Below, piece by piece: positions 1,807-63,012 of a DNA stretch of 64,000 nt. The notes beneath the pieces were generated by a model. That model was not told where the DNA came from and searched no databases. It was given only the letters and a program-made list of their open reading frames with translations. The DNA is from a virus (taxonomy: Duplodnaviria > Caudoviricetes): positions 7,807 through 71,806 of IMG/VR virus record IMGVR_UViG_3300044676_005314. One strand, written 5' to 3'. Numbering within the stretch: the stretch's first letter is position 1; each line of letters starts with the position of its first letter. A program made the translations under genes and the position numbers.

Positions 1807-2235
1807 TAAGAGTTAGACAAAAGAAAGTAGGAAAGTAATTAAAAGGTTCCCTAAATCGCTAAGGTAAAACGGAACGCTAGGATACTTAGGGTGGGTAGCC
1901 CAAAAGGCCTTGTTAGTACAAATTAAAAAGCCATTGAAGCAAGTAGGAAGCAATAACTATCTGAAGCTATATAGAAACCATTTGGATGTGTCATCCGTGG
2001 GGAATGTAAGTCAGCAGTACTGATTTTATAGTGGTTAGACAAGTTACCGAAAGTGTAGAGTATGGGACTTAGTTAAAATTGTTAGGTCTGTATATAAAAC
2101 TTGGAGCAATTGATAAAAAAGTCTTAGGACTCGACCTTGTGGCGTTGCAGAAGCAAAGGACCTTTTAATTCTTTGTTACTTTAGATTTATAGGACAGCTG
2201 TGGATTTAGTTGCTTTCCCCACAGCAAAGTCCTTT
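1807..2235 (+). ncRNA. putative large structured ncRNA (RNA-A)
   Basis: own promoter, no ORF of 60 aa or more, closing helix AATTAAAAGGTTCC (about 1837-1850) / GGACCTTTTAATT (2157-2169), internal helices with G-U pairs valid on the plus strand. Confidence 0.55.
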
Positions 2236-2304
2236 ATCCAATCCAATCCAACGGAGTTTTAGGAGCAGGGGAGCCTATCGCTGTTTTTTGGAACTAAAAA
2301 TAAA

Positions 2305-2478
2305 TTAACCTAAAATATTAAAAGTTGCTAAGAAACAGCCTAAGAGGGTTAACGCATCTAGGTTAATTTGTAGAGCGATATCCATTTCTTTTAGCTTTGA
2401 GCCGTTAGTAATGGAGTTATCTACAAAGTACCATTTACTGTGGTAATTGCCCTTAACTCGGTATTGTGTTGCTTTCAT
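2305..2478 (-). CDS. 57-aa leaderless protein with hydrophobic C-terminus (MKATQYRVKG...LGCFLATFNILG)
   Basis: translated by hand; TTGACA(2513-2508)-17-GATAAT then 6 nt to ATG. Confidence 0.65.
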   Translation of the reverse strand: MKATQYRVKGNYHSKWYFVDNSITNGSKLKEMDIALQINLDALTLLGCFLATFNILG

Positions 2479-2550
2479 ATAAGTATTATCTCATCTTTCC
2501 TAATCTTTGTCAAGTCATATCCAAAAAAGATTTGGAGCCATAGGTTGGGG

Positions 2551-2973
2551 TTACCAACCTACGCTATACTCCTCGAACTCATCTTCGTAGAAGTCGCCTC
2601 CTAAGAAGAACCATTCTTCTTCTGTTAACAGTGTTTTGATAACGAAGATGTCCTTTAATTGGTCCTCTCTACTGAGTTGGTCGTAACCTACTCTCATAGA
2701 GTTATGACTTGCTCTCTTCTCGGGGGTGTAATCTATATCTATTGAATAGAATTCGCCACCGTCCTCAGCTAGAAGTTCCCAAACATATTCGAGGCAACTT
2801 ACCCAATAAGCGTGAACCCATTCAGCTAGCTCCTCTAGGTCTGAGGTGTGTTTTAAGCCCTCTCCTAGCCCTAATTGACTGAACTCGGTAGATAGTTTAG
2901 CCCACTTGATAGTCCTGTAGTCAGTGCCGTTTCCTTGGTTATCGGTCAACGGTCTTTGTGCTTTCGCTTTCAT
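2551..2973 (-). CDS. acidic hypothetical protein (start revised to MKAKAQ)
   Basis: open frame; conserved 21-nt motif ends 6 nt before this ATG. Confidence 0.65.
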   Translation of the reverse strand: MKAKAQRPLTDNQGNGTDYRTIKWAKLSTEFSQLGLGEGLKHTSDLEELAEWVHAYWVSCLEYVWELLAEDGGEFYSIDIDYTPEKRASHNSMRVGYDQLSREDQLKDIFVIKTLLTEEEWFFLGGDFYEDEFEEYSVGW

Positions 2974-3036
2974 ACTTATTACTAGTGGCAAGTTTTCCAA
3001 TATATCCTAAATATAGAAAAAAATCTTTTTTTTTAT

Positions 3037-3065
3037 TTGACATATATCCAATAATCTGTTATATT
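3037..3065 (+). promoter_or_regulatory. sigma70-type promoter
   Basis: TTGACA-17-TATATT. Confidence 0.75.
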
Positions 3066-3101
3066 TAAATTATAAAAGTTAAAAATTAGAAAAGGAATAT
3101 T

Positions 3102-3401
3102 ATGGAAATTATGGACGCAATTATGTTTCTACGCGAGTGGAACGATAAGGAAGCATTTGAAGCTACAGGAATGAGACCACACGAGTTCCAAAAGAAAATA
3201 GTTATGGAAGATATAGTCCAATCAGAGGAACACTTTCTTGGATACAAAGAAGCCCTTTACGACTTATCCCAATACTTTTTCTTTTTAAGAGGACCACTCC
3301 GTGAAAAAGAGTTAGAAATTAAGAAAAAAATTGAAGAACTTGGGAAGAATACCGTTGACCATTATGGTTATGACGGATATATGGACAAGCCGAAAGGATA
3401 A
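3102..3401 (+). CDS. hypothetical protein
   Basis: AAGGA RBS, own promoter. Confidence 0.75.
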   Translation: MEIMDAIMFLREWNDKEAFEATGMRPHEFQKKIVMEDIVQSEEHFLGYKEALYDLSQYFFFLRGPLREKELEIKKKIEELGKNTVDHYGYDGYMDKPKG

Positions 3402-3403
3402 TT

Positions 3404-3553
3404 ATGGAATACATTGTAGATATTGGAAGCTTCGAGATTGCAGAGGAAGAGAAGTCCTTTGTGGAGTCAATGGATGTTTATTCTCAAAGAGAATGGTTAA
3501 TCCAACAAATTCGAAGTGGATTTTGTGATATTGACCAAATAATTCCAAATTAA
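3404..3553 (+). CDS. 49-aa hypothetical protein (MEYIVDIGSF...)
   Basis: AAGGA RBS, starts 2 nt after the previous stop; replaces the track ORF 3331..3528. Confidence 0.6.
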   Translation: MEYIVDIGSFEIAEEEKSFVESMDVYSQREWLIQQIRSGFCDIDQIIPN

Positions 3554-3589
3554 CTTGACAAAGTTTTTAGGATGTGTTATATTTATATT

Positions 3590-3739
3590 ATGAAAGTTAA
3601 AAAATTCAAAGAAATTTTAGACCTCATAGAAGGGCATAACTGCGATGCAGATATGTGCTCCTTGATGTCTTATGAGTGGGCAGAACACTTCCAAGGGGCT
3701 AAGAGCCACCTAGAAGAGCTCCAAGCTTACTCTAGATAG
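3590..3739 (+). CDS. 49-aa leaderless protein (MKVKKFKEIL...)
   Basis: TTGACA(3555)-17-TATATT then 6 nt to ATG. Confidence 0.65.
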   Translation: MKVKKFKEILDLIEGHNCDADMCSLMSYEWAEHFQGAKSHLEELQAYSR

Positions 3740-4042
3740 ACTTGGTTCCTTACTGCAGTGGGCTAACCATCCATTGTAACGGCAGGGATATCGTAGGGAT
3801 ATCTGACGGCTACTAGGAGCAAGAAGGATTGGAAGAGGGTCCACGAAGAAAAAAATGGACCGGCAATAAGCGTGGGATGAAATTGAAGCCCACCTCCATT
3901 CCTGCATCCAACGGAAATAAAAAGGAACTTCGTTCCCTCCCTGTCCTTGCCTCCCCTCCAAGTCCTAAGAGTCCTATGGATATGGTGGAACAGGGGAGCC
4001 TCTGTCTTTAGGGAGTTTTATCTCTCTCATTGCTTATATTCC

Positions 4043-4071
4043 ATAATAACATTTCCTAGGGGAGTTGTCAA
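4043..4071 (-). promoter_or_regulatory. sigma70-type promoter
   Basis: TTGACA-17-TATTAT with TGT extension. Confidence 0.75.
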
Positions 4072-4094
4072 GGTAATTTAAAAGTTTTTTTTAT

Positions 4095-4325
4095 CGTCCA
4101 TAGGAAACAGGAAGAAATTACTTCCTTGGGCAGACCATAAAGGCTCCTTTATCTTTGTGCTACTCCTCGGGTTATTAAGTAGATTACAAGTTATGCGTTC
4201 GTTATCGCTCTACTCCCGAAACTTTCACACTCTGATTAAAGTGCCTTCCTGTCGGTCTGTTATAAAGTTGAGACCGAGAGTCCATTTATAAATCATCTCT
4301 CATTGTGGTGCGTTCTCAACCTTAT
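4095..4325 (-). ncRNA. putative structured ncRNA (RNA-C, about 230 nt)
   Basis: promoter TTGACA(4360-4355)-17-TATTAT; only ORFs under 30 aa; helices AAGGTTGAGA/TCTCAACTTT, TTCGGG/CCCGAG, AGGAAG/CTTCCT. Confidence 0.45.
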
Positions 4326-4379
4326 ATATCCATAATAACATATCCAATTTTATTTGTCAAGTTATTTTGAAACTTTTTT

Positions 4380-4787
4380 TATTTTTTTTTTGGAAGGCTA
4401 GGTGGTTAGGCTCTTGTGCTCCATTATTAATTTTATATTTGGAAGTTTCGTCCCATTCACAAGATTTAGTTATAACCCTCCACTCTAGCTTTCCATTGGT
4501 TAGACAAGGAGCCTGCTTGCAGACCTTATTGTCGGGTCCGATTCCTTGCCTTCCCAAATCTTCTTTCCTTTGTGTATTTAGAGAGGTGTGGACAGAGCCT
4601 TTCGACACTGCCACACGGACCACTATTGTGCATCTCTTAAGGTTGTTGCTTGAAGATGGGGCTCTAGCTAAAGACTTATTACAACCATTCTTCAAGCTGT
4701 CAAATAATTTTGCAACCTTAGTTTCTTAGTGTCATTGGTGGCCATCATTGCTTAGTGGCCGTTCTTCGCAAACCTATCAACTAAGAT
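4380..4787 (-). ncRNA. putative large structured ncRNA (RNA-B, about 400 nt)
   Basis: promoter TTGACA(4822-4817)-17-TATATT; GAAA-capped hairpin 4616-4586; helices that pair only on the minus strand via G-U. Confidence 0.55.
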
Positions 4788-5052
4788 ATAATAAATATAA
4801 CACAAAGCTTTCTATTTGTCAAGTATATTTATAATTTATTTTATACATTTTTTATACATTTATACACAAAATATACATTTTTTATACTTTCTCCAATTTA
4901 GCTCCAATGGCCTGTAGGAGGCTCTCCCTCAAGGCCTTCTTCATCCTCGAACCGTTAGGCCTAGACTTGACAAGTATGCCTTAAAATGTAAATATAAGCA
5001 TACTATATATAGTGGTGTTTTCCGACCAAATAAAAAAAACTTTGGAATTAAC

Positions 5053-5171
5053 TTGACAAACTCCGAACTCCTGCTAGAATGGAAGTAGAACTCCAATTGC
5101 TCCACAGGACTCCACTTTATAAAAAAAAATCTTAAAATTGACTTGACAAAAGGAATGGGGTATGGCAATAT
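5053..5171 (+). promoter_or_regulatory. two tandem sigma70-type promoters
   Basis: TTGACA(5053)-16-TAGAAT and TTGACA(5143)-17-CAATAT. Confidence 0.75.
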
Positions 5172-5199
5172 GGATGTATAAGCAACAGAAAGGTCAGCA

Positions 5200-5433
5200 A
5201 TGACATACATAAGCAAAGAACACGGCGACAAAAAAATTGTTGGAAGATACGAGGTGGAAATGCCTGCTCAAACTTTAGAGTGTAAAACTAGAGGAGAGGG
5301 ATGTTACTTACCGGGATATTTTAAATATCAAGAGGACGAACAAGGACGCAGATATCGTACCAAGTTCCACAGAGTAACAGCTCACACCGTATCAATGCCG
5401 ATTTTTGAGGGAGAATCTAGACCTATACTTTAG
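5200..5433 (+). CDS. small Cys/His protein, paralogue of 6262..6504
   Basis: AGAAAGG RBS; C-x6-C-x-LPGY...KFH-x2-T-x-HT shared with 6262. Confidence 0.75.
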   Translation: MTYISKEHGDKKIVGRYEVEMPAQTLECKTRGEGCYLPGYFKYQEDEQGRRYRTKFHRVTAHTVSMPIFEGESRPIL

Positions 5434-5605
5434 GTTTAGATTTCCACAGGACAGGAAGGGAGACCAAGTGGATGTAAAAATTTATTCCACGGAGGATGGC
5501 TTGTTCATCCAAACCGAGGAAATCTAACAGGACTTGACGATAGGAAATTCGGGGAAAACCCCGAGTTCCTGTATTCCCTCCAAGAAAAAAAATCCTAAAA
5601 AGTCC

Positions 5606-5634
5606 TTGACAAATTCCTTGTCTCCTGTTATAAT
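5606..5634 (+). promoter_or_regulatory. consensus sigma70 promoter with no ORF downstream
   Basis: TTGACA-17-TATAAT, TG extension. Confidence 0.75.
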
Positions 5635-5777
5635 GGAGTTAGAAAAAATAAATAAAAAAAAATAATCTCCCCTGCTCGAGTTTATCCGGAGTGTTGGAAG
5701 AGGACCCTAATGAAGGTTCCGGAGTTTTTGGAGCTCTCTAAATGCGCCTCCAATGGATTTTTTGGCATTTTGTGGAT

Positions 5778-5793
5778 TAGAACATTTGTTCTA
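5778..5793. promoter_or_regulatory. LexA (SOS/Cheo)-like palindrome
   Basis: TAGAAC-ATTT-GTTCTA fits the Gram-positive GAAC-N4-GTTC box. Confidence 0.5.
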
Positions 5794-5795
5794 TT

Positions 5796-5811
5796 TGTGA
5801 AATTTTTCACA
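5796..5811. promoter_or_regulatory. CRP/GlxR-like palindrome
   Basis: TGTGA-AATTTT-TCACA, exact TGTGA-N6-TCACA. Confidence 0.5.
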
Positions 5812-5838
5812 ATCTATATATGGTAATTTTTACCAAAA

Positions 5839-5868
5839 AATTAGAGGGTTATTTCTAGCCCTCTAATT
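5839..5868. terminator. hairpin at the 3' end of minus-strand gene 5855
   Basis: AATTAGAGGG / CCCTCTAATT 10-bp stem. Confidence 0.55.
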
Positions 5869-6010
5869 CTATTAATTCAGCTATAAACATTTCACATTCT
5901 AAATATTCACATATAAAGAAATCAGAAATTTCTGTAACAGCTCGTCTGTCGCAACTATCGCAAAAATTCATTTTGCCCCCTTTCATCTTTTTAGTTTTAT
6001 TTTCTTTCAT
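5855..6010 (-). CDS. small Cys-rich protein (start 6010 or 5971)
   Basis: CDSC...CEYLEC; conserved upstream motif 6 nt before ATG 6010; AAGGGGG before ATG 5971. Confidence 0.55.
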   Translation of the reverse strand: MKENKTKKMKGGKMNFCDSCDRRAVTEISDFFICEYLECEMFIAELIELEG

Positions 6011-6261
6011 ATAAAGTACTAGTGACAAGTTTTTCAAAATCATAGATTTTTACAGAAATATTTTAATTAGAATAGTTTCTAACCTAACTCTAGAAATGAA
6101 AGTCTTAAGCACTTTTAGAGGTAAAATCAGCAAAGTTTTTTTTGGTCAAAATGGTCAATATCTGAAATAGTCAATGTTTATGGGCTTTTATGGGTAAATA
6201 TTTTTTCTGTTTTTCTAACATTTAAGTTGATTAGTGTCTTCTTTTTAGTACACTTAATCTT

Positions 6262-6504
6262 ATGAAAACAACAAAAACAGAAAGAGATACAAAAATGAAT
6301 ACCATAATTAAAGACGGCGTAGAATACTTAGTAGAAGAAATCGGCTCAATGACTGTACCGTGTACAGCTAAGGGTTTCTGTACACTACCGGGTTATTCTA
6401 AAAAAAGACTAATTAAAAGAGAAGATGGTAGCTTCGATGAAAAAGTTAAAAAGTTTCATAAGCTAACACCACACACACTATATACAAAGATAGAGAAAGG
6501 TTAA
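6262..6504 (+). CDS. small Cys/His protein, leaderless, paralogue of 5200..5433
   Basis: TTGATT-16-TACACT, 7 nt to ATG; shared motif. Confidence 0.75.
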   Translation: MKTTKTERDTKMNTIIKDGVEYLVEEIGSMTVPCTAKGFCTLPGYSKKRLIKREDGSFDEKVKKFHKLTPHTLYTKIEKG

Positions 6505-6520
6505 ATAGAAAGGTTAATAA

Positions 6521-6545
6521 AACCCCTAGAAATAGGGGTTTTTTT
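6521..6545 (+). terminator. intrinsic terminator
   Basis: ACCCCTA-GAAA-TAGGGGT followed by T run; near-identical to 12809. Confidence 0.75.
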
Positions 6546-6560
6546 GAAAGGTAAAACATT

Positions 6561-6866
6561 ATGAAAAATTATAAAGACTTAAACACAGAAATATCACTCA
6601 ATATAGAAAATAGAATATTTGAAAATCTTAACAATGGCGAAGACTTTTTTACTGAAGTTTATAACTTATTAAATTCAATAGGGGTAACCGTTGAAGACTT
6701 AGACATTGCTGGGTTAGATTTTATTCTAAACGTAGAATTTGGCGTTAACATTACAGTTAATGAAGAAGAAGAAAACTACGATAATTTTTCGCCACGCTTA
6801 GCTAGATTTATAATAAGCGCGTTAGATTTAGGGTATAGAAGATTTTTAGAAAATAAGAAAGGTTAA
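6561..6866 (+). CDS. hypothetical protein
   Basis: GAAAGG RBS, open frame. Confidence 0.7.
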   Translation: MKNYKDLNTEISLNIENRIFENLNNGEDFFTEVYNLLNSIGVTVEDLDIAGLDFILNVEFGVNITVNEEEENYDNFSPRLARFIISALDLGYRRFLENKKG

Positions 6867-7082
6867 AAATTAACATATAAAAATAACCCCCTGTAATTGG
6901 TAAATTTTACCAAATAGGGGGTAATTTTAAATCGCTAACCAAATCAAGCAAAAGCCCTCGCGGAGCACTGCGTGTGGGAATAACCAAATCAAAGGGTAGG
7001 GGCCCAATCCATCTAAGGAAAGTAAATTAATCTAAATACCGATATGCAAATTTTATTTTTTTAAAAAAACCGGCCTTCGAGT

Positions 7083-7346
7083 TTATTCTTGGTCTTTGTC
7101 ATATGAAGGTAAGTGATACTCAATAGTTAGTAATATAATCTCTAATGACTTATGTAGTTGTGTGTGTAGTTGCTTAGTCATTTTTATGTTATCTATGATA
7201 AGCAATGTATCTAAGATACTGTCACTCATTTCAAACAATAGGCTATTTAATGGCTTGCCTGTGTGCTCTTCTATTACAGAAGCAACCCCTTTATACGCTT
7301 CAAACATTGTTTGCATCTCACTTACTAGTTCTTCGTTTGTCTTCAT
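7083..7346 (-). CDS. leaderless hypothetical protein
   Basis: TTGACA(7381-7376)-17-CATAAT with TGG, 6 nt to ATG. Confidence 0.75.
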   Translation of the reverse strand: MKTNEELVSEMQTMFEAYKGVASVIEEHTGKPLNSLLFEMSDSILDTLLIIDNIKMTKQLHTQLHKSLEIILLTIEYHLPSYDKDQE

Positions 7347-7424
7347 ATTTATATTATGCCACAGGATAGATGAAATGTCAAATTTTAAAATAGTCGCAAA
7401 ACTACTTGCTAGAATATATATGTA

Positions 7425-7826
7425 ATGACAAAAGAAAATGGTAGGCCTTCAAAGCTAACAGCTGAAGTGATAGAGAACATTCAAAATTGGTTACGAATGG
7501 GTTTTTTCGTTGAAGATGCTGCTCGTATGGCTGGTATTCACAAATCAACCCTTTACCGTTGGTTAGAAAAAGGTAGAGAAGATAGAGATAACGAAATAGA
7601 GTCTTTATATGCTGACTTTTGCGACGCTATGGAGAAATCTAGAGCAGAAGCTGAGGGTATGTATCTCAATTCAATCAAGACTGCTGCAAGCCGTGGGCAA
7701 TGGCAAGCTGCTGCTTGGTGGCTAGAGAGAAGCTTTGATAAGTGGTCAAAACCAAACAAAGTTCAATTATCGGGTTCAGATGAAGAACCTGTCAAAATTA
7801 AGATTAAATACTCTGGCGACAAATAA
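7425..7826 (+). CDS. terS: terminase small subunit
   Basis: GRPSKLT...G.FVEDAARMAGIHKSTLYRWL.KG helix-turn-helix, then F.DAMEKSRAEAE and WQAAAWWLER. Confidence 0.75.
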   Translation: MTKENGRPSKLTAEVIENIQNWLRMGFFVEDAARMAGIHKSTLYRWLEKGREDRDNEIESLYADFCDAMEKSRAEAEGMYLNSIKTAASRGQWQAAAWWLERSFDKWSKPNKVQLSGSDEEPVKIKIKYSGDK

Positions 7827-7994
7827 TCGTAAAAATCTGGGTTCGCGCGCCGTTGGCCTAATGCGAGTTGCAATGTCAGATGTCATATCCTTTTTTTCAG
7901 AATCTAGAGTTTTAGTTTAGATTTATTTTGGGCAGGGGGTGTTCTGCACCTTTTGAAGCTGTGCCCTACTCTCTGTTGGTATGTATTTAATTGT

Positions 7995-8054
7995 AAAAAA
8001 AAGAAGTAGGAATTCGTTATCGCTAGTAAACGATTAATCCCCACTTCTTCTTAT
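7995..8054 (-). ncRNA. putative sRNA of about 55 nt (single long hairpin)
   Basis: TTGCTA(8089-8084)-17-TACTAT with TGG; hairpin arms 8048-8029 and 8018-8002, then T8. Confidence 0.5.
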
Positions 8055-8278
8055 ATATTAATAGTACCACATAAGTAGTTTTTTAGCAAGTCAAAAGTAA
8101 AAAATTTTTTTTGGCCCTTTGGGTGATATGAGTGACCTATTGCTTATTCCCAGCCGAGTTTCGCTGGCCTTTTCGGACACCCCAAAACAATTAAGCTTTA
8201 GGGTACATACCGACAGAAAGGAGGCTAATAATGAAATTAGCTTCTACTCCATTATACCACAAGATATAGTATGTGATG

Positions 8279-8463
8279 GTATATACCACTATATTTAGTA
8301 TGTTTTTTGACACCACTATATATTGTGTAGTTCAGTTTTGACACTACCGTAGTATGATTCTGACACTACTGTAGTATGAATTTGAGACTACCGTAGTACC
8401 GCTGATGACACTATAACTATACTAATATAACTAGACATATTAACTATAAGAATATAACTATTT
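8279..8463 (+). repeat. left copy of an inverted repeat of at least 185 bp (origin-like)
   Basis: reverse complement of 63815-64000, one-T indel in a homopolymer. Confidence 0.95.
8339..8463 (+). other. iteron array plus AT-rich tract, putative replication origin
   Basis: TGA(C/G)ACTAC(C/T)GTAGTA at 8339, 8361, 8383 (22-bp period, internal ACTAC-N-GTAGT palindrome), partial copies at 8308 and 8406, then four TAACTA repeats in AT-rich DNA. Confidence 0.6.
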
Positions 8464-8495
8464 GCATTCTAGTAAAGATTTGTTATACTGAAAGT

Positions 8496-8563
8496 ACTCA
8501 TTGCACCTCAATGACAGTGGTGGGAGAGATTTTCTCAATTTTCTCTCCCCACTACTTTTTTTT
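8496..8563 (+). ncRNA. putative sRNA of about 68 nt
   Basis: TTGCAT-16-TGT-TATACT(8484); TCATTG/CAATGA hairpin; 13-bp terminator 8517-8555 plus T8. Confidence 0.55.
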
Positions 8564-8573
8564 AAGTAATGAT

Positions 8574-8602
8574 TTGACTTTCCAAACAATGTGTGGCAAT
8601 AT
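8574..8602 (+). promoter_or_regulatory. sigma70-type promoter
   Basis: TTGACT-17-CAATAT with TGG. Confidence 0.8.
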
Positions 8603-8620
8603 AGATAATCGGAGGTAGTA

Positions 8621-9328
8621 ATGACAAATGAAGACAATATATACGAACTTCAACCAATACAAGCTAACTTAGATGATATTAAGTCACCTATAGAGCAAGT
8701 AAAGGAAGATGGTAACATAGGCCTAAATTGGGACCAATGGATAGAATGCGTTCAATTTATGGCCATAAGATACACAAGCGGTACAGATACACCTAGTTCT
8801 TGGGGAGAAGTAAAACTAAGAGCAATGTATCAAGACCTACAATACTTTACCTATGAAGATGTTCAAAAGGCAATAATAAGACTCCACGAAGAGGGAAGAA
8901 GTTTTGCCCCGAACAGTTCACAGATTATAGGAAAGTTAAATGCATTAAATTCCCAACAGGTTATGTCAGCGTCTCAAATAGAGAGGTTGTCTAAGGGTCA
9001 GTACAGCGAATGTAAAGGTGGTGCACAGCACGAATGGGCAGATTGGGGATGGTTCTTTGATGAACAAGGATATCCAATGTTCTTAGAGGTTTGCTGTTCT
9101 ACACTAGGACCTAATATGCCTACTTGTTTAGCAGAGCGAACGAAATCAAATCCAAGCGAAGCTAACAAAAGTATGCACCCGGGTTTTCATATGACTAGAG
9201 AAAAATTCATAGAGAGTATGAAGAAGCTCAAGTTGAGTGACAAGAAACAAGATGAACTATTGGAATACAGAAACAGGCTACTCACAGAAGAAGAAGTAGC
9301 AAAATTAGGAGTTACATATGATAAGTGA
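8621..9328 (+). CDS. putative replication-associated protein (helicase loader/inhibitor-like segment plus Cys/His region)
   Basis: MYQDLQYFTYEDVQKAIIRL.EEGRSFAPNSSQI resembles the G39P/DnaB-loader-type L...y..V..A......FaP motif; lies next to the iterons. Confidence 0.4.
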   Translation: MTNEDNIYELQPIQANLDDIKSPIEQVKEDGNIGLNWDQWIECVQFMAIRYTSGTDTPSSWGEVKLRAMYQDLQYFTYEDVQKAIIRLHEEGRSFAPNSSQIIGKLNALNSQQVMSASQIERLSKGQYSECKGGAQHEWADWGWFFDEQGYPMFLEVCCSTLGPNMPTCLAERTKSNPSEANKSMHPGFHMTREKFIESMKKLKLSDKKQDELLEYRNRLLTEEEVAKLGVTYDK

Positions 9329-9986
9329 TTTTATAGACAATAATGTAAATGAAGATAAGTCGGTACCGATGTTCTACGCTATGACTTTCTACAATGATTT
9401 GAGACAACAAATCTATGACAAGAATGCAATCTTTATATTAAAAGATAAATTAGATTGGCTTGGTTACAATGGAACAAAACAAGATATGGATGAAGACTTA
9501 TGTGTTTCAGCTGTATTTGCTTATGTTGAACTTTGTATGGCCGAGCTATTGTATGAAGGTATGAGAGACATCAAGAAGATGGATGACTTATACCAAGCTA
9601 CTTACATTAGAGACCATATTCAAAAAGGATTTAAGAAGTATAAGACTTATGGGAATTGGCCCGAAGATATGAAGAAAGATACGATAAGACATTCTTTATG
9701 GAATTATGAAGATGAAGTACTAGCTATGCAAAACAGTGTTAAAAATATTTTAGCAAGTGTTATGAGAGCAGTAGGAGTAATCAATAGAGAAAAAGATAAA
9801 GTTTCTATGAACCATATGCATATGATTTATGATGAACTTTCAGAGGAACTAAAAGAAATGCCTTTACCAAAACTTATGGAAGATGTAGAAGATGATGAAA
9901 AAACTTCTCTAGATTTGATTTCATCTAGTATGTTTTCAGATAACTATATTGAAAATGTGGTTGACTTTTGTTTTAACAAGGGTTAA
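9318..9986 (+). CDS. hypothetical alpha-helical protein
   Basis: AGGAG RBS, overlaps previous stop. Confidence 0.75.
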   Translation: MISDFIDNNVNEDKSVPMFYAMTFYNDLRQQIYDKNAIFILKDKLDWLGYNGTKQDMDEDLCVSAVFAYVELCMAELLYEGMRDIKKMDDLYQATYIRDHIQKGFKKYKTYGNWPEDMKKDTIRHSLWNYEDEVLAMQNSVKNILASVMRAVGVINREKDKVSMNHMHMIYDELSEELKEMPLPKLMEDVEDDEKTSLDLISSSMFSDNYIENVVDFCFNKG

Positions 9987-9995
9987 AATTATCTT

Positions 9996-10375
9996 GCGAT
10001 AATCTTATTACATAGTAGTAAGGTTATGCAGGACAGTGCGCCTGTGGAAAATGATTCGATGGGAAGGTATTGGTTTGGACACTTGTACTATTCATTTGGG
10101 AGCAATACCCAACACAGGCACTAGGGAATCGGAAATATAACTAAATTTGTTTATGTACGGATTTAAATACTAAATGTAGTGTATTAGTAAAAGTTATAAT
10201 TAGATTCCCTTATTTTTACCCTCACACATTATTTAGATAATGATGAATAAGTATTAGTTAGTGAGGTGAAACGGCGAGCAATTGAGAGGGTATAATGGAA
10301 ATGTCGGTGGATAACTAGCAATAGTTGTCCCTTTGCCGATACCCTCCCATCGTCGGCTCTCTTAGGAGAGCCGTA
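9996..10375 (+). ncRNA. putative large structured ncRNA (RNA-E, about 380 nt)
   Basis: TTGACT(9961)-17-TAAAAT; at least six helices, including GGATAACTA-GCAA-TAGTTGTCC and a terminal CGGCTCTC/GAGAGCCG. Confidence 0.6.
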
Positions 10376-10411
10376 TCTAAAATGACTTTACAAAATTTTT
10401 TTTACTTTGAC

Positions 10412-10440
10412 TTGACAAACTAAATATACTATGGCATACT
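10412..10440 (+). promoter_or_regulatory. sigma70-type promoter
   Basis: TTGACA-17-CATACT with TGG. Confidence 0.8.
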
Positions 10441-10474
10441 TAATATATAACGATTAGAAAGGTAGGTATAACCT

Positions 10475-10702
10475 ATGGATTACGATATTAAAGATAGAAT
10501 CATTTCAGAAACAATGTCTGAATATGAAGATATTGACATTAAAAGAACTACAAATGGATTATCTGTAGAAATCCATTTCTCTAGTGACGTAACTAAAGAT
10601 GAAGCAATTGCTTGGTTTGAAGATACTTTATCAAAAGTAGAAAGCCAAAGTTTTTTAAGAGCAAGTCTTGATTTATGGATTACCCCAAAGGAGGAAGTAT
10701 GA
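10475..10702 (+). CDS. hypothetical protein
   Basis: RBS, first gene of a coupled chain. Confidence 0.7.
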   Translation: MDYDIKDRIISETMSEYEDIDIKRTTNGLSVEIHFSSDVTKDEAIAWFEDTLSKVESQSFLRASLDLWITPKEEV

Positions 10703-10884
10703 GTCAAACAGTTTTTTGGAGTAACGAAGCTGAAGATGGTGAAGGCTATGGTGGAATGTTTGTTCGTTCTGACTTAGGTAAGACTTTCACTAAATGGACT
10801 GACAAAGGATTACAAATTGTTGGTATTGTTATTGACGACTCTAATGAAGTAGAGTTCATTCTTAGGGATAAAGAAGAAGAATGA
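10699..10884 (+). CDS. hypothetical protein (start revised to MSQTVF)
   Basis: AAGGAGG RBS, ATGA overlap. Confidence 0.7.
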   Translation: MSQTVFWSNEAEDGEGYGGMFVRSDLGKTFTKWTDKGLQIVGIVIDDSNEVEFILRDKEEE

Positions 10885-10979
10885 AAAAAGTCGAATACGA
10901 ATTTTGGTACGATGACCAAGGTAGAGTTGTAGGTAAAATACCTATTACTGATGTTGTCGGATTAGATGAGGAAGAATAA
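10881..10979 (+). CDS. 32-aa peptide
   Basis: ATGA overlap, hand translation MKKVEYEFWY...DEEE. Confidence 0.5.
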   Translation: MKKVEYEFWYDDQGRVVGKIPITDVVGLDEEE

Positions 10980-11125
10980 TGGGTGGAATATTATTATGCT
11001 CAAAGTGTGATAGCCGTTGGCATTCTCACGATGGTACAGGTTCTTATGTTAATGATGAACATTACTGTGAAAACTGTACTCAAGAGATAGAAGCTCATTG
11101 GTTATTAAAAAGTGAGGAAGAATGA
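10979..11125 (+). CDS. 48-aa zinc-finger-like peptide
   Basis: CSKC...CENC; TAATG overlap. Confidence 0.6.
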   Translation: MGGILLCSKCDSRWHSHDGTGSYVNDEHYCENCTQEIEAHWLLKSEEE

Positions 11126-11283
11126 AAAAACATACAGTATTCTTGTTAGGAAAGCTAACTTATCTAACAGATAGTGAAGATGAAGCTGTAGCTTTTGCAG
11201 AAAAAGATTTAAAATTTCTGCACCCTAAATACAATATGGAAGTTAGTGGATTAATAGCAATCGACAATATGGAGGAAGAATGA
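11122..11283 (+). CDS. 53-aa hypothetical protein
   Basis: ATGA overlap, GAGGA RBS. Confidence 0.6.
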   Translation: MKKHTVFLLGKLTYLTDSEDEAVAFAEKDLKFLHPKYNMEVSGLIAIDNMEEE

Positions 11284-11405
11284 AAGATAACCCTTTTGAT
11301 GGGCCTAGTATAAAAATAGGTTCTGATGAATTTAAAGAAATGATTATGCAAGTTATGATTAACAAACATAATGACGCAGACGAGGATTTCGATTTAAATG
11401 CGTAG
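11280..11405 (+). CDS. 41-aa hypothetical protein
   Basis: ATGA overlap, GGAGG RBS. Confidence 0.55.
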   Translation: MKDNPFDGPSIKIGSDEFKEMIMQVMINKHNDADEDFDLNA

Positions 11406-11488
11406 AAGATTTCGTAAAGAACAACACGAGAGAACTTATCAGATAAATTGGAATCATAGTTTGCCCGTTTATGGTGAAGGGAAAAAAG

Positions 11489-11587
11489 ATGAACCGACAT
11501 CAAAGACGAGCAAGTAAGTCTAAAAAGAAAACACAATATCGAGGTTTGAGTAAGAAACAAATTCTTACGCCCGATAGTTGGAGATAA
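11489..11587 (+). CDS. 32-aa basic peptide (MNRHQRRASKSKKK...)
   Basis: hand translation; MNRxQRR opening is common in small phage proteins. Confidence 0.45.
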   Translation: MNRHQRRASKSKKKTQYRGLSKKQILTPDSWR

Positions 11588-11596
11588 GGGGGAATA

Positions 11597-11983
11597 GTGA
11601 CTGAAGAAAATCACGATTTACATAAAGTAGGTATGGGTAAACTATACGAAAAATATATGATGGCTAAAAATCTATCAGATATGTTAGATGTAGCTTATTC
11701 ATATAACACTGAAACAAAAAGGAACGAAATAATTCTTATCATTAAAGATGGTGAAAGAACAATTCCTTTGGGCAACTTATGGTCTGCAGAAGACTTTGCG
11801 TTGCGTGACTATAAATTAAATGATTCATTGATTATGTCTAGAGTCTTTAAACAGTATGAATCTGTTGACGAAAGAAGTACTCTTGATGAATTCAATGACG
11901 AGTATCATCCTGTTGATAAAAACTATGATGATATTTGGACGTTTATCGATGGTGCTAGACAAGCATTAGACGATACAGAATAA
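11597..11983 (+). CDS. hypothetical protein
   Basis: GGGGG RBS before GTG. Confidence 0.7.
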   Translation: MTEENHDLHKVGMGKLYEKYMMAKNLSDMLDVAYSYNTETKRNEIILIIKDGERTIPLGNLWSAEDFALRDYKLNDSLIMSRVFKQYESVDERSTLDEFNDEYHPVDKNYDDIWTFIDGARQALDDTE

Positions 11984-12078
11984 ATACTTTCAGACTACCG
12001 GCAGAATACAAGTAATACCTACCTACTCATATACCGTTGGTAGTCTGTGAGTATCTATTCGTGAGAATGAATAACTAG

Positions 12079-39500: not shown

Positions 39501-42500
39501 AAAAGCAGACGCTTCTACACCGGACAGATTGTTCTATTATTGTGCCAATCACTCTGGTATGGGTGGAGGTGTATTAGAAGTTGCTGGTAATTCGATTGTT
39601 GAATTTGCAGTCACAGTAGCCAACGTAAGTGGTAACAAATATCATCTAGATGGAGAAACTGCTGCAAGCGTTCAATTAGTTCCGGGAACAGTTTATAGAT
39701 TTGACCAAGGAGACAGTTCTAACAATGGACATCCACTTAGATTATCTACTACAAAAGATGGAACATTTAACAGTGGTAGCGAATACACAACTCAAGTTTC
39801 TACTTCCGGAACTCCGGGAACAGCAGGTTCATACACACAAATAATTGTAAATGGTGCCACTGCAGATAAGCTTTATTATTACTGTTCTAATCACTCTGGA
39901 ATGGGTGGAGATTCAGTTGTGTCAGTACAAGGAAGTAGTTTTGTTGCAGGAACTGGAATAAGTATATCCGGTGAAACAATATCAACAACAATAACTCAAT
40001 ATGCAGATAGTGATGCTAGAGGAGCGATATCCGTCACAGATAGTGGTGGGGATGGTTCGTTAGCGTACAATTCAAGCACAGGTGTAATAACCTATACAGG
40101 ACCTAGTTCTAGTGAAATTAGAGCACACTTTAGTGGTGGAACAGGTATTGATATAAACTCCGGCTCTGTTGCTATTGATAGCACCGTATTAACATCAAGC
40201 AATAATACTGACGATATCACAGAAGGTTCTTCAAATCTTTATTACACAGATGCTAGAAGTCGTGCTGCAGTATCAGTCACTGACTCGGGTGGCGATGGTA
40301 GCCTTGCTTACAATAGTTCAACAGGAGTAATTACATACACTGGGCCTTCAGCTGCTGAAGTTAGAGCTCACATTACTGCAGGTACAGGTGTTTCCATAAC
40401 TTCTGGTGAAGTTGCAATAGGTCAGTCAGTTGGAACCTCAGATAATGTAACTTTTAACGATATGACAGTATCCGGTAATTTAACTGTTAGTGGAACTACA
40501 ACAACTTTAAATACAGAAACTCTTACTGTTGACGACAACATAATTGTATTAAATAACAATGTCACAGGTACACCTAGCGAAAACGCAGGTATTGAGATTG
40601 AAAGAGGAAGCTCTACTAATAAAACATTTGTATGGGATGAATCAAATGACAAGTGGACTATCGGTTCAGAAACTTTTGTTGCAGGAACAGTAGAAGCTAG
40701 CTTAACTGGAAATGTCACAGGTGATGTCACAGGTAATGCTGATACAGCAACTGCTTTAGCTACAGCTAGAACTATAGGTGGTGTTTCTTTTGATGGAACA
40801 GCAAATATAGATTTACCGGGTGTTAATACTTCTGGTAATCAAAATACAAGTGGTAGTGCTGCTACTTTAACAACAGCTAGAAACTTTTCTTTAACTGGCG
40901 ATGTAACTGCAAGTGCAGTTAGCTTCGATGGTTCCGGTGCCGTAGCATTAGCTACAACAATAGGTGCAGGTGCTGTTGACTTTGCAATGATTGCAGACAC
41001 TGTAGATGAAGATGATATGACTTCTAACTCTGCAACTAAATTACCAACACAGCAATCAGTAAAAGCTTATGTAGATGCTCAAATAGCTACTAAAGATGCT
41101 TTATCAGAACTTAGTGGAGATACTGATGATATAACTGAAGGCTCTACTAATCTTTACTTTACTAACGCTAGAGCAGACGCAAGAATTACAGCTGCTGATA
41201 TACAAGATTTAAACAATGTAGGATTCTCTGCACCGGGCGCTTCTGATGATGATAAAGTTGTCACTTGGGACAACTCAGCAGGAACATTTGCTCTAAAATC
41301 TGTTAGTGGTATATCCGGTTCGGGTGAAACAAACACAGCTTCTAACATTGGTACTGCAGGTGTAGGACTTTTTGATGGAAAAGTTGGAGAAGATTTACAG
41401 TTTAAGAAGATTAATGCAGGTTCTGCAAAAATTACAATTACTGATGATACTTCAAATAACGAAGTAGATATAGACTTTGGTTCTGTATCAATTGATGATT
41501 TAAGTGATGTAGATACAACAAGTTCAGCACCTACAAGCGGTCAAGCTCTTAAATGGTCTGGTTCGCAATGGGAACCGGGAGATGCTAGTTCACAAGTAGC
41601 ACAATTAACAGATGTTACTCTTACATCACTAGCAACCAATGAAGTATTAAGATATAACGGCAGTGCTTGGGTTAATGTAGCTTTAGATACTGATGACATA
41701 GGAGAAGGTTCTACAAACCTTTACTACACAGACGCTAGAGCTGATGCAAGAATAGCTGCAGCAACAACAGATGACCTAACTGAAGGTTCAACCAATCTTT
41801 ACTATACAGATGCAAGAGCTAGAGGTTCTATTAGTGTAACAGATAGTGGTGGCGATGGTTCACTAGCTTATAACTCAAGTACCGGTGTTCTTACTTACAC
41901 AGGTCCTAGTGCCTCTGAAGTTCAAGCACACATTACAGCTGGTACTGGTGTGTCAATTAGCTCTGGTGAAGTATCTATAGGTCAAGCTGTAGCTACAACT
42001 TCTGATGTAACATTTAATGACTTAATAGTATCTGGTGACTTAACAGTTTCTGGTACTACAACTACTGTCAATACAGAAACAATAGCTTTAGCTGATAATC
42101 AAATTGTTCTTAATTCCAATGCAACTGGCTCTGCTTCAGAGAATGGTGGTATTGAAATTGAGAGAGGTGATGATGCTAATAAGACACTTATATGGGATGA
42201 AAGCATAGACAAGTGGACAGTTGGCTCAGAGACTTTTGTAGCTGCAACCTTTGAAGGTGATGCTACAGGTATTACAACAGCAGCAATAACTGCTTTAACA
42301 GAAGATAGCTCTCCAGCAGAAGATGACTTCTTAGTAACATTTGATACAAGTGCTTCTGCATTAAAGAAAGTTGCAAAATCAAATATCGCAGCAGCAGTTA
42401 GCTTCAGTGTAAATGATGAAATGCCTCTTACACTTTCAGACGCAAGTTCAGACCCAATAGATTTTACAAACGTTGGTACCTCAGCTACAGACATAGACTT

Positions 42501-56662: not shown

Positions 56663-56672
56663 GAGGTATTAA

Positions 56673-57280: not shown

Positions 57281-57283
57281 TAG

Positions 57284-60046: not shown

Positions 60047-60240
60047 AAGTAATTAAAAAAATGGTGGGAGTAGGCGACTGGATTATTGACGTTATAAAAG
60101 AGTCAATAGCACAGATTTTCACCCTCCTTGGGTTTTACATTGCTTGGTTCACATTGACCGGAACCGCCCAAGACATAGTAGGTATAGCAATAGTTATATC
60201 TACGGTAATATGGCTTTTAACAATAAGACTTAGAGATTAA
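60043..60240 (+). CDS. small two-TM membrane protein
   Basis: TTGA overlap, hydrophobic. Confidence 0.65.
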   Translation: MKVIKKMVGVGDWIIDVIKESIAQIFTLLGFYIAWFTLTGTAQDIVGIAIVISTVIWLLTIRLRD

Positions 60241-60342
60241 GGTATAATAAAGTATGTGTTATATAAATCAAAAAGAAGATGGTTCATTCATACAGATATG
60301 CAATTGCAAGTATGGTAGTGAGCATTGTGAGGATAGAAACTA

Positions 60343-60534
60343 ATGTCTAGTTCAAGTAATAGTAATGGTTTAACACAAAAAGAAATGTTGATGATGGTTT
60401 TAGAAGGACAGGAAAAAATTAATGAGCGTATTGACTCGCTCCACGAAAAAGTCAACGCAAAGATTTCAAGACAGGAACTCGCAGGATGGGTTGTCGTTGT
60501 AGGCACACTCTCCGCACTATCAACTCAAATGTAA
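60343..60534 (+). CDS. coiled coil plus C-terminal TM protein
   Basis: sequence pattern. Confidence 0.6.
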   Translation: MSSSSNSNGLTQKEMLMMVLEGQEKINERIDSLHEKVNAKISRQELAGWVVVVGTLSALSTQM

Positions 60535-60558
60535 TCAGTCGCCTCGAAAGGAGGTATT

Positions 60559-60699
60559 ATGACAGAAATCATATTAGTATTAACAGTCTCACTTATATCT
60601 ATTGGTCTTCTTATATGGGTAGGTGTAATGAGCAACAAATTTTTTAAGTATTTTAAAGAGATAGCACAGGAAATTTATAATGAGCAGAAAAAAAATTAA
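60559..60699 (+). CDS. 46-aa single-TM protein
   Basis: AAGGAGG RBS; hand translation. Confidence 0.6.
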   Translation: MTEIILVLTVSLISIGLLIWVGVMSNKFFKYFKEIAQEIYNEQKKN

Positions 60700-60853
60700 T
60701 AGATGTGATGAGTGTAAACAGCCACTCAAACACATACAGACAAATCAATGGATGTGTGACCAATCACCAAGTAATTGTATATTATCGTTAAAAATTTTGT
60801 TTTTAAACAACCCGGAAGATGAAGAAGAATGAGCCAATGGATAATTATGTTAT

Positions 60854-61039
60854 TTGCAGTTACGTTGCTTTATGTATCTGCTTATATTGGTTCTTCAAAA
60901 TGATGCAGGAGTGAGTCCTCCTTGCCCCATATGTCAGTCAGTTCTATTCGAAAGACACGCAGGACTTTACTGCTATAATGCAAAGTGTCCAGCATTTAGC
61001 CAAAAAGTAGTGGCTTGTTGTGAAGGAGGGGCGTGTTAA
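60854..61039 (+). CDS. small zinc-ribbon protein (start uncertain)
   Basis: CPIC...C..AKCP...CCEG. Confidence 0.55.
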   Translation: MQLRCFMYLLILVLQNDAGVSPPCPICQSVLFERHAGLYCYNAKCPAFSQKVVACCEGGAC

Positions 61040-61899
61040 AAACAATATTTGTAAAAATACCATCATTAGATGATAAAGAGTTAGTACCTACATTAAAAGA
61101 TTGCTTAAACAAAGCAGAGCATCCAGAAAGAGTTTATATAGCCGTATCTTTAATTTATAAAGATAGAAAAAGCTTAGACGAATTAATGATTTTTAAATCT
61201 CAATATGCAAACGCAAATGTAAAAATAGTTACTAGAGAGTTTGATATAAATTATATGGGTGTAGGCAAACAGCGAAAATTGGTTGGTGATATGTATGATA
61301 GTCAAGATTATGTATTGCAAATAGATTCTCATACTTGGTTTTGTAAGAATTGGGATACTAAACTTATAGACCTACACGATGGTGATGACAAAACAATTCT
61401 TACAGCTTACGCAGGGCAATATGGTTATGTAGATGGAATTAGAAAACCAATTGGAGATGGTAAGTTTAGATACACAACAATAGTAGAAGGTGATAGACAG
61501 TTCACACAGTTTACAGATGCTTGGGTAGATGAACCTATATACGATGATGATAGAGAATTTATACCTATCTCTAAGTTTTGTGCAAATTTTGCTTTTGGTA
61601 CTAAAGAGTGGGCTTTAAAAACAGGTTTAGTAGCTGAGTCAATTTTTTGGAGTGAAGAGCCTTTGCAAACAGAATATCTTAAAATAAATAAATTTAATTT
61701 ATTATATCCAAATATAGATGAACCAATTATATGTCATTTATATGCTCAACACATAACAGAGCAAAGTAGAAGAGAACCTTACACAAATTACCTAACAGTA
61801 GAGGAACACGAATATTTAGACCATTACGATAGTGAGGTGTATCACGGGCATATGAACCGAATAAAAAACTATACGCATATACAAGAATCTAGGAGGTGA
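61033..61899 (+). CDS. Gnt1/GT60-like glycosyltransferase (hydroxyproline O-GlcNAc transferase family)
   Basis: IFV.I.S.DD.EL..T.......A..PE.VYI.V; Y.LQIDSH..F..NWD..LI; NF.FG, EE and I.HLY motifs. Confidence 0.85.
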   Translation: MLKTIFVKIPSLDDKELVPTLKDCLNKAEHPERVYIAVSLIYKDRKSLDELMIFKSQYANANVKIVTREFDINYMGVGKQRKLVGDMYDSQDYVLQIDSHTWFCKNWDTKLIDLHDGDDKTILTAYAGQYGYVDGIRKPIGDGKFRYTTIVEGDRQFTQFTDAWVDEPIYDDDREFIPISKFCANFAFGTKEWALKTGLVAESIFWSEEPLQTEYLKINKFNLLYPNIDEPIICHLYAQHITEQSRREPYTNYLTVEEHEYLDHYDSEVYHGHMNRIKNYTHIQESRR

Positions 61900-61901
61900 T
61901 T

Positions 61902-61964
61902 GTGCCGTATCATAGAGGTAAGAAAAAGCCAAAGTCAAATGGTAAAAAACCTAAAAAAAGGTAA
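61902..61964 (+). CDS. 20-aa basic peptide MPYHRGKKKPKSNGKKPKKR
   Basis: AGGAGG RBS before GTG; terminator follows. Confidence 0.5.
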   Translation: MPYHRGKKKPKSNGKKPKKR

Positions 61965-61971
61965 ATGAGTA

Positions 61972-61998
61972 AGGCCCCTTCACAATAGGGGCCCTATT
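61972..61998 (+). terminator. hairpin terminator
   Basis: AGGCCCCT / AGGGGCCC stem. Confidence 0.6.
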
Positions 61999-62057
61999 CT
62001 TACTATGACACGAGACCATAGATGATTACCCTAATATTATAAGGCTATAATGAATAT

Positions 62058-62387
62058 ATGTTTTACTATAAAGTAGATGTTTTAAGGATTGTAGATGGAG
62101 ATACGGTAGATGTTAGAATTGATTTGGGTTTTAATGTGTGGCATAAATGTCGTGTACGACTCTTGGGCATTAATGCTCCAGAATCACGAACAAGAGATTT
62201 GGAAGAGAAAAAACGAGGGCTTGCTGCGAAACAGTGGCTTATTGATAAAGTAGAGTTCAAAGATGTGGAAATGCAATCTCACGGAACAGGTAAGTACGGT
62301 AGAGTACTAGGTGAATTATTTGTCGAAGGTGTAAATATAAATAAACTTATGGTCAAAGAAGGCCACGCTGAAGAATATAATGTTTAA
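62058..62387 (+). CDS. SNase-like (thermonuclease) protein, leaderless
   Basis: RIVDGDT.D...DLGF....RVRL.GI.APE; GKYGR.LG; TATAAT 6 nt before ATG. Confidence 0.92.
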   Translation: MFYYKVDVLRIVDGDTVDVRIDLGFNVWHKCRVRLLGINAPESRTRDLEEKKRGLAAKQWLIDKVEFKDVEMQSHGTGKYGRVLGELFVEGVNINKLMVKEGHAEEYNV

Positions 62388-62772
62388 AAAAATAAAAGAT
62401 AATCTAGGTTTAATAGCAACAGCTATAGCTCTTATGGGTTCTGTTGGTGCAGGTTTATCTACTGCTGGAGACATAGTCAATACACTACAAAACATTGATG
62501 ACAGAATGAATCAAGTTGAAGTAGATTTTGAAATGCTTAAAGATAGCACAATGGTACAAGGCGATATAGCTGTACTGTTTGAAAAAGTGCAGAAACTAGA
62601 AATAGATAATGATACTAACCAATATGTTCAAATTCAAAAATGGGAATGGGACGATATGAAAACACAAGTTATTCGTCTTGAATCACAACTTATGGACCAA
62701 GAACAAGATTTAATGGTAGTCAGAGAAATACAAACTAGATTAGCTTGGATAGAAGCTAATTGCTGTCGATAG
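62380..62772 (+). CDS. N-terminal TM plus coiled-coil protein
   Basis: LGLIATAIALMGSVGAG then heptad repeats. Confidence 0.65.
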   Translation: MFKKIKDNLGLIATAIALMGSVGAGLSTAGDIVNTLQNIDDRMNQVEVDFEMLKDSTMVQGDIAVLFEKVQKLEIDNDTNQYVQIQKWEWDDMKTQVIRLESQLMDQEQDLMVVREIQTRLAWIEANCCR

Positions 62773-62786
62773 CTGATATAAAGAGG

Positions 62787-63012
62787 GGGTGGGCCCAAGT
62801 TAAATACACTTACCTCAGTCTTTCGACACAGATAGATTTTTCACCTATCTAGGTTCAGCTTCTTTCCCACTAAGGCCGGTGAAACGGGGACTACCGAAGT
62901 TATATGGTAGTACACTATCCCCTTGCCTGCGAACTATAACAGACTTGCAGTTCAACTGCCCAGTTTAGCTACTGAGAAGCATCTCAGTGTATCAGAAAGG
63001 AGGAACCCACCC
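62787..63012 (-). ncRNA. putative structured ncRNA (RNA-D, about 226 nt)
   Basis: GC-rich, ORF-free; closing helix GGGTGGGTTC/GGGCCCACCC (two G-U, minus strand only), GTC-GAAA-GAC and four more hairpins. Confidence 0.5.

Follow-up and report, generated by a model that had tools for sequence, protein, structure and literature searches.

A lineage of uncultured marine siphoviruses probably encodes at least six conserved, folded non-coding RNA genes or modules of no described family

We analyzed a stretch of 64 kilobases (kb), bases 7807 to 71806 of a 71.8-kb IMG/VR virus record rated complete (IMGVR_UViG_3300044676_005314). This stretch is called the window, and its own numbering is used unless stated otherwise. 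At least six genes or modules in the window probably specify non-coding RNAs that are conserved and folded and fall into no described family. A first examination of the letters by a model, without database searches (the sequence-only reading), had described five intervals as a battery of large, individually promoted structured RNAs and had proposed an RNA-based effector or scaffold system; its observation is confirmed and extended here, with conservation and covariation supporting the battery, and its interpretation is partly supported. We name the units R1 (1807 to 2235, plus strand), R2 (two modules, A and B, and a closing hairpin between 4323 and 4109, minus strand), R3 (4788 to 4380, minus strand), R4 (9996 to 10378, plus strand) and R5 (63012 to 62787, minus strand). 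To these we add R0 (4036 to 3740, minus strand), a sixth unit that had been overlooked. That the units are functional RNA elements of new families is well supported: they are conserved across a lineage of uncultured marine siphoviruses, and helices in R1, module A, module B, R4, and R5 are kept through compensatory changes. "Large" proved apt for R1, R4, and R5, which are single domains of about 230 to 380 nucleotides (nt), but not for R2 and R3, which are strings of modules of 60 to 135 nt.

Homologues of the units came from several searches. Relatives of the terminase in IMG/VR gave homologues of R4, and the 149-amino-acid (aa) protein encoded at 2551 to 3000 (minus strand) led to 33 metagenome loci and several assemblies with homologues of R1, R0, R2, and R3, while one related-locus search with the 149-aa protein alone found nothing. 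The 127-aa protein encoded beside R5 has 89 protein clusters in public data, and R5 homologues from three more divergence levels came from the contigs carrying it. Four more IMG/VR contigs were recovered with a word conserved in module B, and two of them also have module A and R4. Loci were also obtained with the ArdC-like and 288-aa proteins as queries, all of them without the RNAs, and a search of IMG/VR with an exact 16-mer of R5 returned chance matches only. The RNAs exceeded the adjacent 149-aa gene in nucleotide conservation in three of four genome pairs.

The sequence-only reading had proposed that homologues be examined for covariation, and in R1, module B, R4, and R5 compensatory changes rose above both the shuffled and the slid controls. 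The largest count was for R4, in which seven distinct sequences had 93.7% of 98 pairs kept and 26 were compensatory (shuffled, 10.1 ± 2.3; slid, 4 to 10). The module B alignment of 11 distinct sequences kept 96.8% of 35 pairs, with 22 compensatory (80 cells; shuffled, 15.2 ± 1.7; slid, 3 to 9). Seven distinct R1 sequences kept 93.8% of 49 pairs, with 20 compensatory (shuffled, 11.3; slid, 2 to 6), and five distinct R5 sequences kept 92.3% of 53 pairs, with 15 compensatory (shuffled, 7.1 ± 1.9; slid, 1 to 4). For module A, 7 of 13 pairs were compensatory among seven sequences. Six distinct R0 sequences kept 93.6% of 66 pairs, with 6 compensatory (shuffled, 2.5; slid, 0 to 2). The claim of nested helices whose G-U pairs are valid on the transcribed strand also held: G-U pairs far exceeded A-C pairs on the called strand in the predicted helices of all tested alignments, a count that is biased because the folds were predicted on that same strand, and the strand agrees with promoter direction. 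Relative to dinucleotide shuffles, minimum-free-energy z-scores on the proposed strand were -4.0 for R2, -4.25 for R3, -5.0 for R4, and -3.5 for R5. The GNRA loops that had been noted are likewise present; those of R4 and R5 vary within GNRA across relatives, and block 3b of R3 contains a GAAA hairpin.

The units could not be assigned to a known RNA class by the sequence-only reading, and covariance-model searches agree. At the gathering score, Rfam 15 (ROOL and GOLLD included) had no match anywhere in the window, and at E<=5 Rfam returned only chance-level snoRNA and leader matches in 1 to 12000 and 62000 to 64000, none of them inside the units. A search of the window for transfer RNAs (tRNAs) found none. 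The units are unrelated to one another and are shuffled independently among relatives, module B is mostly a 5' leader of small genes, and R5 goes with a protein gene; the proposal of a single RNA-based effector or scaffold system found no support. Words shared between units had been noted. One of these, GTGTCGAAAG, does occur more often than expected (2 versus 0.02, for a word chosen post hoc), whereas AGGCAAGG occurs three times versus 1.6 expected, which is chance. As the shared words stand in opposite order in R3 and R5 and one of them is at chance level, they show no homology, and we rejected the two units as paralogues.

A region full of genes of 40 to 150 aa raises the possibility that the units are protein-coding micro-genes, either unrecognized or in decay, or that they do no more than space out promoter cassettes. 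Reading frames of 83 to 120 codons are indeed open in R3 and R0. Of the five intervals described as free of open reading frames (ORFs), R1, R2, R4, and R5 contain several kinds of stops in all six frames, but R3 does not fit that description, having TTG-start frames of 112 aa (minus strand) and 120 aa (plus strand) without a family match. These R3 frames do not resemble protein and are kept only in near-identical relatives, as split pieces, and further relatives match merely a 17- to 19-aa stretch; the 83-aa frame of R0 breaks in L046 (relatives' loci are cited by our own handles). In both R0 and R3, the two strands "translate" equally well into relatives and the frames break. Insertions and deletions are not multiples of three. 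No frame with a start and a ribosome-binding site is kept across relatives, and no interval has a conserved reading frame, in line with what the sequence-only reading had supposed. Spacers would not be expected to be conserved at least as well as a neighboring real gene, as these units are. We therefore consider micro-genes or spacers very improbable. The five intervals are also richer in guanine and cytosine than their flanks, as had been claimed, but modestly so (0.38 to 0.47 versus about 0.36 for the window).

Four of the intervals had been placed directly behind canonical promoters, and this is the case for R1, R2, R3, and R4, whose near-consensus sigma-70 promoters are also found in relatives. 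The R1 promoter (1772 to 1800, plus strand) combines TTGACA, a 17-nt spacer, and an extended -10 of TATGG-CAATAT and is kept in 6 of 7 homologues. The R3 (4822 to 4794), R2 (4360 to 4332), and R0 (4071 to 4043) promoters, all on the minus strand, each match 11 of 12 consensus positions with a TG extension; the first is kept in 4/4 homologues and the last in 6/6, and that of R2 also occurs in homologues. R3, R2, and R0 thus form three promoter-led non-coding units head to tail on the minus strand, from 4822 to 3740. R4 follows TTGACT, 17 nt, and TAAAAT (9961 to 9989, plus strand), which is kept in 5 of 8 homologues, in some as TATAAT. After each of R1, R0, R2, R3, and R4 comes the next promoter, a hairpin, or a convergent gene, and no gene of the unit's own. 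The promoters strongly suggest that the units are transcribed early, by the host polymerase.

Several points weigh against reading all of these units as conserved folded RNAs with their own promoters. The covariation alignments hold just 5 to 11 distinct sequences each, and the alignment of module B was fitted to the structure of its model, which favors that structure. R1 and R0 fold no better than shuffled sequence (z-scores of -1.2 and -0.9, respectively). Covariation in R0 is small, and R3 is too invariant for any measurable covariation. R5 has no recognizable promoter of its own. Finally, all eight relatives have the 3' domain of R4 (10269 to 10377, about 100 nt) in nearly unchanged form, helices included, so a constraint beyond RNA pairing acts there.

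This invariance, which extends to both strands of each helix, bears on a further explanation, namely that the conserved sequences act as DNA, as sites for replication, packaging, or regulatory proteins. Examples would be a pac or cos site in the R4 3' domain or origin-related elements near iteron repeats, and R4 does lie 2.5 kb upstream of the large terminase gene and 1.5 kb from an iteron repeat. However, the compensatory changes preserve pairing rather than sequence, in a cruciform or on the opposite strand a large number of the conserved G-U pairs would become A-C mismatches, the contig ends of relatives show no pile-up at R4, and promoters are directed into the units. A role at the DNA level is thus improbable for the units as a whole, although the 3' domain of R4 may be under such a constraint in addition to pairing.

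As an RNA, R4 is predicted to form about 16 helices. Its homologues are found at L003/L017, L004, L006, L007, L008, L012/L016, L013, L085, and L079, and two more distant relatives give the same covariation picture. One GNRA hairpin loop varies between GCAA, GAAA, and GUAA while its stem covaries. A pairing of CGAUGGGAAGGUA with UACCCUCCCAUCG that had been proposed previously would compete with the supported helices. The word GGGA(A/G)GG is present in all R4 relatives at differing positions. We considered R5 and R4 as mimics of the anti-Shine-Dalgarno sequence, through the words CCUCCUUUCU and CCCUCCC, but the R4 word is paired in the supported fold and the R5 word degrades to GUCCUUUCG in L118; the idea is weak and was not adopted.

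The core of R1 (1837 to 2170) is one domain of about 335 nt, closed by a 12-base-pair (bp) stem of AATTAAAAGGTTCC and GGACCTTTTAATT that covaries by eye, and a terminator-like hairpin (2192 to 2232, plus strand) lies 3' of it. R1 homologues are found at L032, L042, L047/L050, L033, L046, and L021. Relatives carry an extra promoter-led unit of about 310 to 430 nt between R1 and its 3' piece (L042:5726-6040, L047:2948-3261, L046:6811-7126, and L033:1370-1804), and the window is without it. R0 has eight homologous loci. Its 5' and 3' blocks are strongly conserved, its middle is variable and GGA-rich, and support for its fold is weak. The GGA-rich half stands opposite a UCC-rich half with which it may simply pair, and the idea of R0 as a CsrA/RsmA-type GGA sponge was not adopted. 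R3 is modular, consisting of block 3a (4786 to 4724), an insert (4721 to 4638), block 3b (4637 to 4579), and a 3' half (4578 to 4380). L032, L047, and L042 carry blocks 3a and 3b almost unchanged. The insert is variable, and relatives lack it or have another sequence in its place; the 3' half is confined to the closest relatives (L032/L034). A further copy of the R3 5' half is present in L110.

R2 consists of a 60-nt hairpin, module A (4323 to 4265, minus strand), and a 135-nt seven-helix domain, module B (4262 to 4129, minus strand), closed by a terminator-like hairpin (4126 to 4109, minus strand). Module A has an invariant CCACAAU bulge and a loop of AUGAGGUAnAAAUGG. A second copy occurs in the same genome at about L077:5520-5563 (plus strand; L077 is positions 1 to 7806 of the genome, before the window starts), so that module A lies at the extreme 5' end of two predicted transcripts from two promoters. 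The fold of module B is supported by a covariance model built from five close sequences, with the structure read from them by one of us. This model scored 40 to 160 bits in 13 loci of the first search and also found the module in the 4 further IMG/VR contigs; distant copies outside the model-building set scored 40 to 94 bits. The strands joining its helices include the invariant sequences GACAG, GAAAG, CAUAACUUGUAA, and CUUAAUAAC. In L043 and L018, modules A and B are 1 to 2.8 kb apart. In most relatives, module B stands behind its own promoter and a gene of 38 to 49 aa starts within 55 to 66 nt of it. These genes are of five mutually unrelated kinds (hydrophobic or membrane-like, acidic, and Cys-rich ORFs among them), and some copies have none; in the window, L032, and L021, a hairpin or U-run is found 3' of module B and no gene, with the U-run of L021 directly after helix P1.

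This arrangement speaks for the main rival, in which all or most units would work in cis within early transcripts and would not be free RNAs. Modules A and B could then be put-like antiterminators, riboswitches, protein-binding operators, or, for module A, a leader-peptide attenuator. In 11 distinct relatives, module B is directly followed by a Shine-Dalgarno (SD) sequence and ATG, and the position of module A at the very 5' end of two transcripts fits the same explanation. So does the loop of module A, which allows a short frame (MRYKW...) to be read in 6 of 7 copies. However, the genes after module B are mutually unrelated, and no shared alternative pairing 3' of module B that would sequester the SD sequence was seen by eye in the alignments. 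The module A frame runs from 3 to 23 codons without a usable SD sequence and stops at codon 3 in L046; it may encode a leader peptide or simply reflect conservation of the RNA. In this window, the next promoter or a convergent gene comes before any downstream gene for R1, R2, R3, R0, and R4, and known leaders are much smaller and less ornate than R1 and R4. For R4, a cis role would be as a regulator of read-through from early into late genes, which would suit its position: the early operon lies on one side and, on the other, the late promoter at 10412, which belongs to the gene after R4. We regard an all-cis explanation as possible but rather unlikely.

For R5, the cis explanation would be a stabilizer in the 3' untranslated region or an insulator between convergent genes, which would fit its lack of a recognizable promoter and its constant place after the same gene. 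R5 lies directly 3' of that gene, which encodes a highly conserved 127-aa protein (63403 to 63020, minus strand; many Tara samples among its 89 clusters). R5 is closed by a GGGUGGG/CCCACCC stem, and its GNRA loop varies between GAAA and GCAA. In its homologues (L050, L110 to L113, L114 to L117, and L118 to L121), R5 always occupies a gap of about 235 to 265 nt with a gene of 127 to 132 aa on one side and a convergent SNase-like gene on the other. This synteny holds across neighbor proteins of 70 to 100% identity. The 127-aa protein has homologues of 40 to 43% identity in Gordonia and Brevibacterium phages and is predicted to fold as a three-helix bundle (predicted local distance difference test score, 80.6). 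Its model was compared with the PDB to ask whether the protein binds RNA, and no significant match was found. The fixed pairing of this gene with R5 raises the question of whether both work together.

On the preferred reading, that of conserved folded RNAs of new families, host RNA polymerase would transcribe the units in the first minutes of infection, alongside neighboring micro-genes that include the ArdC-like gene. R1, R4, R0, and R3 would be free RNAs, since the next promoter or a convergent gene follows each of them. Their long invariant unpaired stretches, early position, and anti-restriction neighbor would be consistent with binding to a protein or other macromolecule of the host or phage, for host take-over or for timing of the phage programme; we hold this role with low confidence. 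Modules A and B would be portable 5' domains that stand alone here or head early mRNAs for unrelated small proteins, and as mRNA leaders they may control elongation, stability, or translation of that transcript. This regulatory assignment is also of low confidence. R5 would be the 3' part of the transcript of the 127-aa gene. A bolder version would make the several unrelated ornate early RNAs (R1, R4, R5, and R0/R3), produced together from consensus promoters, RNA-only factors for host take-over or counter-defence and module B a new ligand- or protein-sensing switch before interchangeable early genes. The RNAs might then be decoys for host nucleases, sensors, ribosomes, or polymerase, or might form self-assembling particles like those of ROOL and GOLLD, and a considerable part of the lineage's early programme would be devoted to RNA instead of protein. 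We consider this version doubtful.

The window also encodes a large terminase, a portal, a prohead protease, an HK97-type capsid protein, tail proteins, and an amidase. No DNA relative of the window was found among GenBank phages. Cultured relatives of the portal and the 127-aa protein are only distant (34 to 43% identity) and therefore give no clue to the host; relatives of the phage come from marine and estuarine samples. An early-type region of about 16 kb starts at the right copy of an inverted repeat, passes through the genome ends, and reaches about position 8460 of the window. It carries about 30 near-consensus TTGACA-17-(TRTGn)-(-10) promoters on both strands and is rich in genes of 40 to 150 aa. 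In the middle of the promoter array lies the gene for the ArdC-like anti-restriction protein, which has a zincin-type metallopeptidase domain (449 to 1369, plus strand). The region is bracketed by the two copies of the 186-bp inverted repeat (8279 to 8463 and 63815 to 64000), which are 99.5% identical and contain short direct repeats. Contigs of several relatives begin exactly within this repeat, and assemblies of relatives often break there.

In L077 and in window positions 5600 to 8600, stretches of 150 to 320 nt that have no SD-led ORF follow further promoters; examples are those after -2056, -162, and 7381 (minus strand) in window numbering. RNA units beyond these six may exist in the genome. 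The motif CTCCCCTGYTCC occurs six times in the early region versus about 0.2 expected (49 to 60, plus; 2262 to 2273, minus; 3987 to 3998, minus; 5667 to 5678, plus; and in L077, 6580 to 6591, minus, and 7314 to 7325, plus), usually followed by UCC(A/G)UAGGA. Most copies sit where transcription units end, one lies at the 5' end of R0, and the motif may be a signal for processing, termination, or protein binding. An 81-nt tRNA-like element that resembles both ends of transfer-messenger RNA (tmRNA) is found at L077:7211-7293 (plus strand), 513 to 595 bases before the window and directly 3' of a small gene. By eye, it has a 7-bp acceptor stem containing a G3:U70-type pair and a GGGGG/CCCCC T arm whose loop is UUCGACU. 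It scored 44.9 bits on the Rfam tmRNA model, below the gathering cut-off of 47, and covers only the two ends of that model; ARAGORN reported nothing and there is no tag frame, so we treat it as a tRNA-like domain only and not as a tmRNA. We also considered it as an attP copy of a host tmRNA gene, but its 25-mer matches only unrelated, non-marine bacteria, and it was rejected as a clue to the host. The gene for a 2201-aa tail protein (36880 to 42260, plus strand) contains several diverged internal repeats of about 225 to 530 nt that are about 68 to 73% identical.

Large, intricately folded bacterial or phage RNAs that lack a known function are rare, and past cases proved to be ribozymes, cores of ribonucleoproteins, or, more recently, RNA-only cages. 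At least four new families supported by covariation, two of them about 375 nt long, come from the one phage lineage studied here, and this lineage is common in ocean metagenomes, judging by the clusters of the R5-neighbor gene and their many Tara samples. The number of the units and their density within a single early region are unusual. Their position among early take-over genes behind consensus promoters means that a role in the first minutes of infection can be tested directly, and the portability of module B before interchangeable small genes makes it a candidate for a new regulatory element. For annotators, there is the warning that about 2 kb of "intergenic" DNA in this genome is functional.

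The closest kind among known systems is the orphan ornate RNAs of phages. ROOL and GOLLD are large orphan RNAs of phages and prophages, roughly 500 to 800 nt in length, and Rfam families exist for both. Like them, the units described here are ornate multi-helix non-coding RNAs of tailed phages in which many unpaired nucleotides are conserved, have no fixed link to a single downstream gene, and are known from the same kind of evidence, comparative sequence analysis. Unlike them, the units are 226 to 430 nt long, with R2 and R3 split into modules of 60 to 135 nt, and match neither model; they lie in an early promoter array rather than beside tRNAs, and several unrelated RNAs occur per genome. 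The put RNAs of HK022 are cis-acting antiterminators that lie a short way past early promoters. The likeness of modules A and B to these is one of position only, as they come right after strong early promoters of different operons, whatever the gene: module A follows two promoters in this genome, and module B follows a promoter of its own in most relatives. However, module B is twice the size, has seven helices, and has no gene downstream in the window. Module B also recalls riboswitch aptamers in its closing P1 stem, its multi-way junction with invariant joining nucleotides, its position in 5' untranslated regions, and an aptamer-like fold supported by covariation (22 of 35 pairs compensatory). 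It departs from them in that its downstream genes do not belong to one pathway and no consistent expression platform was seen by eye in the alignments. The pRNA of phi29 is a packaging RNA, and R4 is likewise phage-encoded and structured, has its own promoter, and adjoins the block of packaging and head genes; this phage, however, has terminase-type packaging, and R4 gives no sign of similarity to pRNA. A survey of IMG/VR (PMC10690425) reports a catalogue of 8,495 candidate structured RNAs of 29 to 151 nt, some of them upstream of genes. The catalogue shares its database and type of element with the present units; R1, R4, and R5 exceed its size range, and module A or B may already be listed in it.

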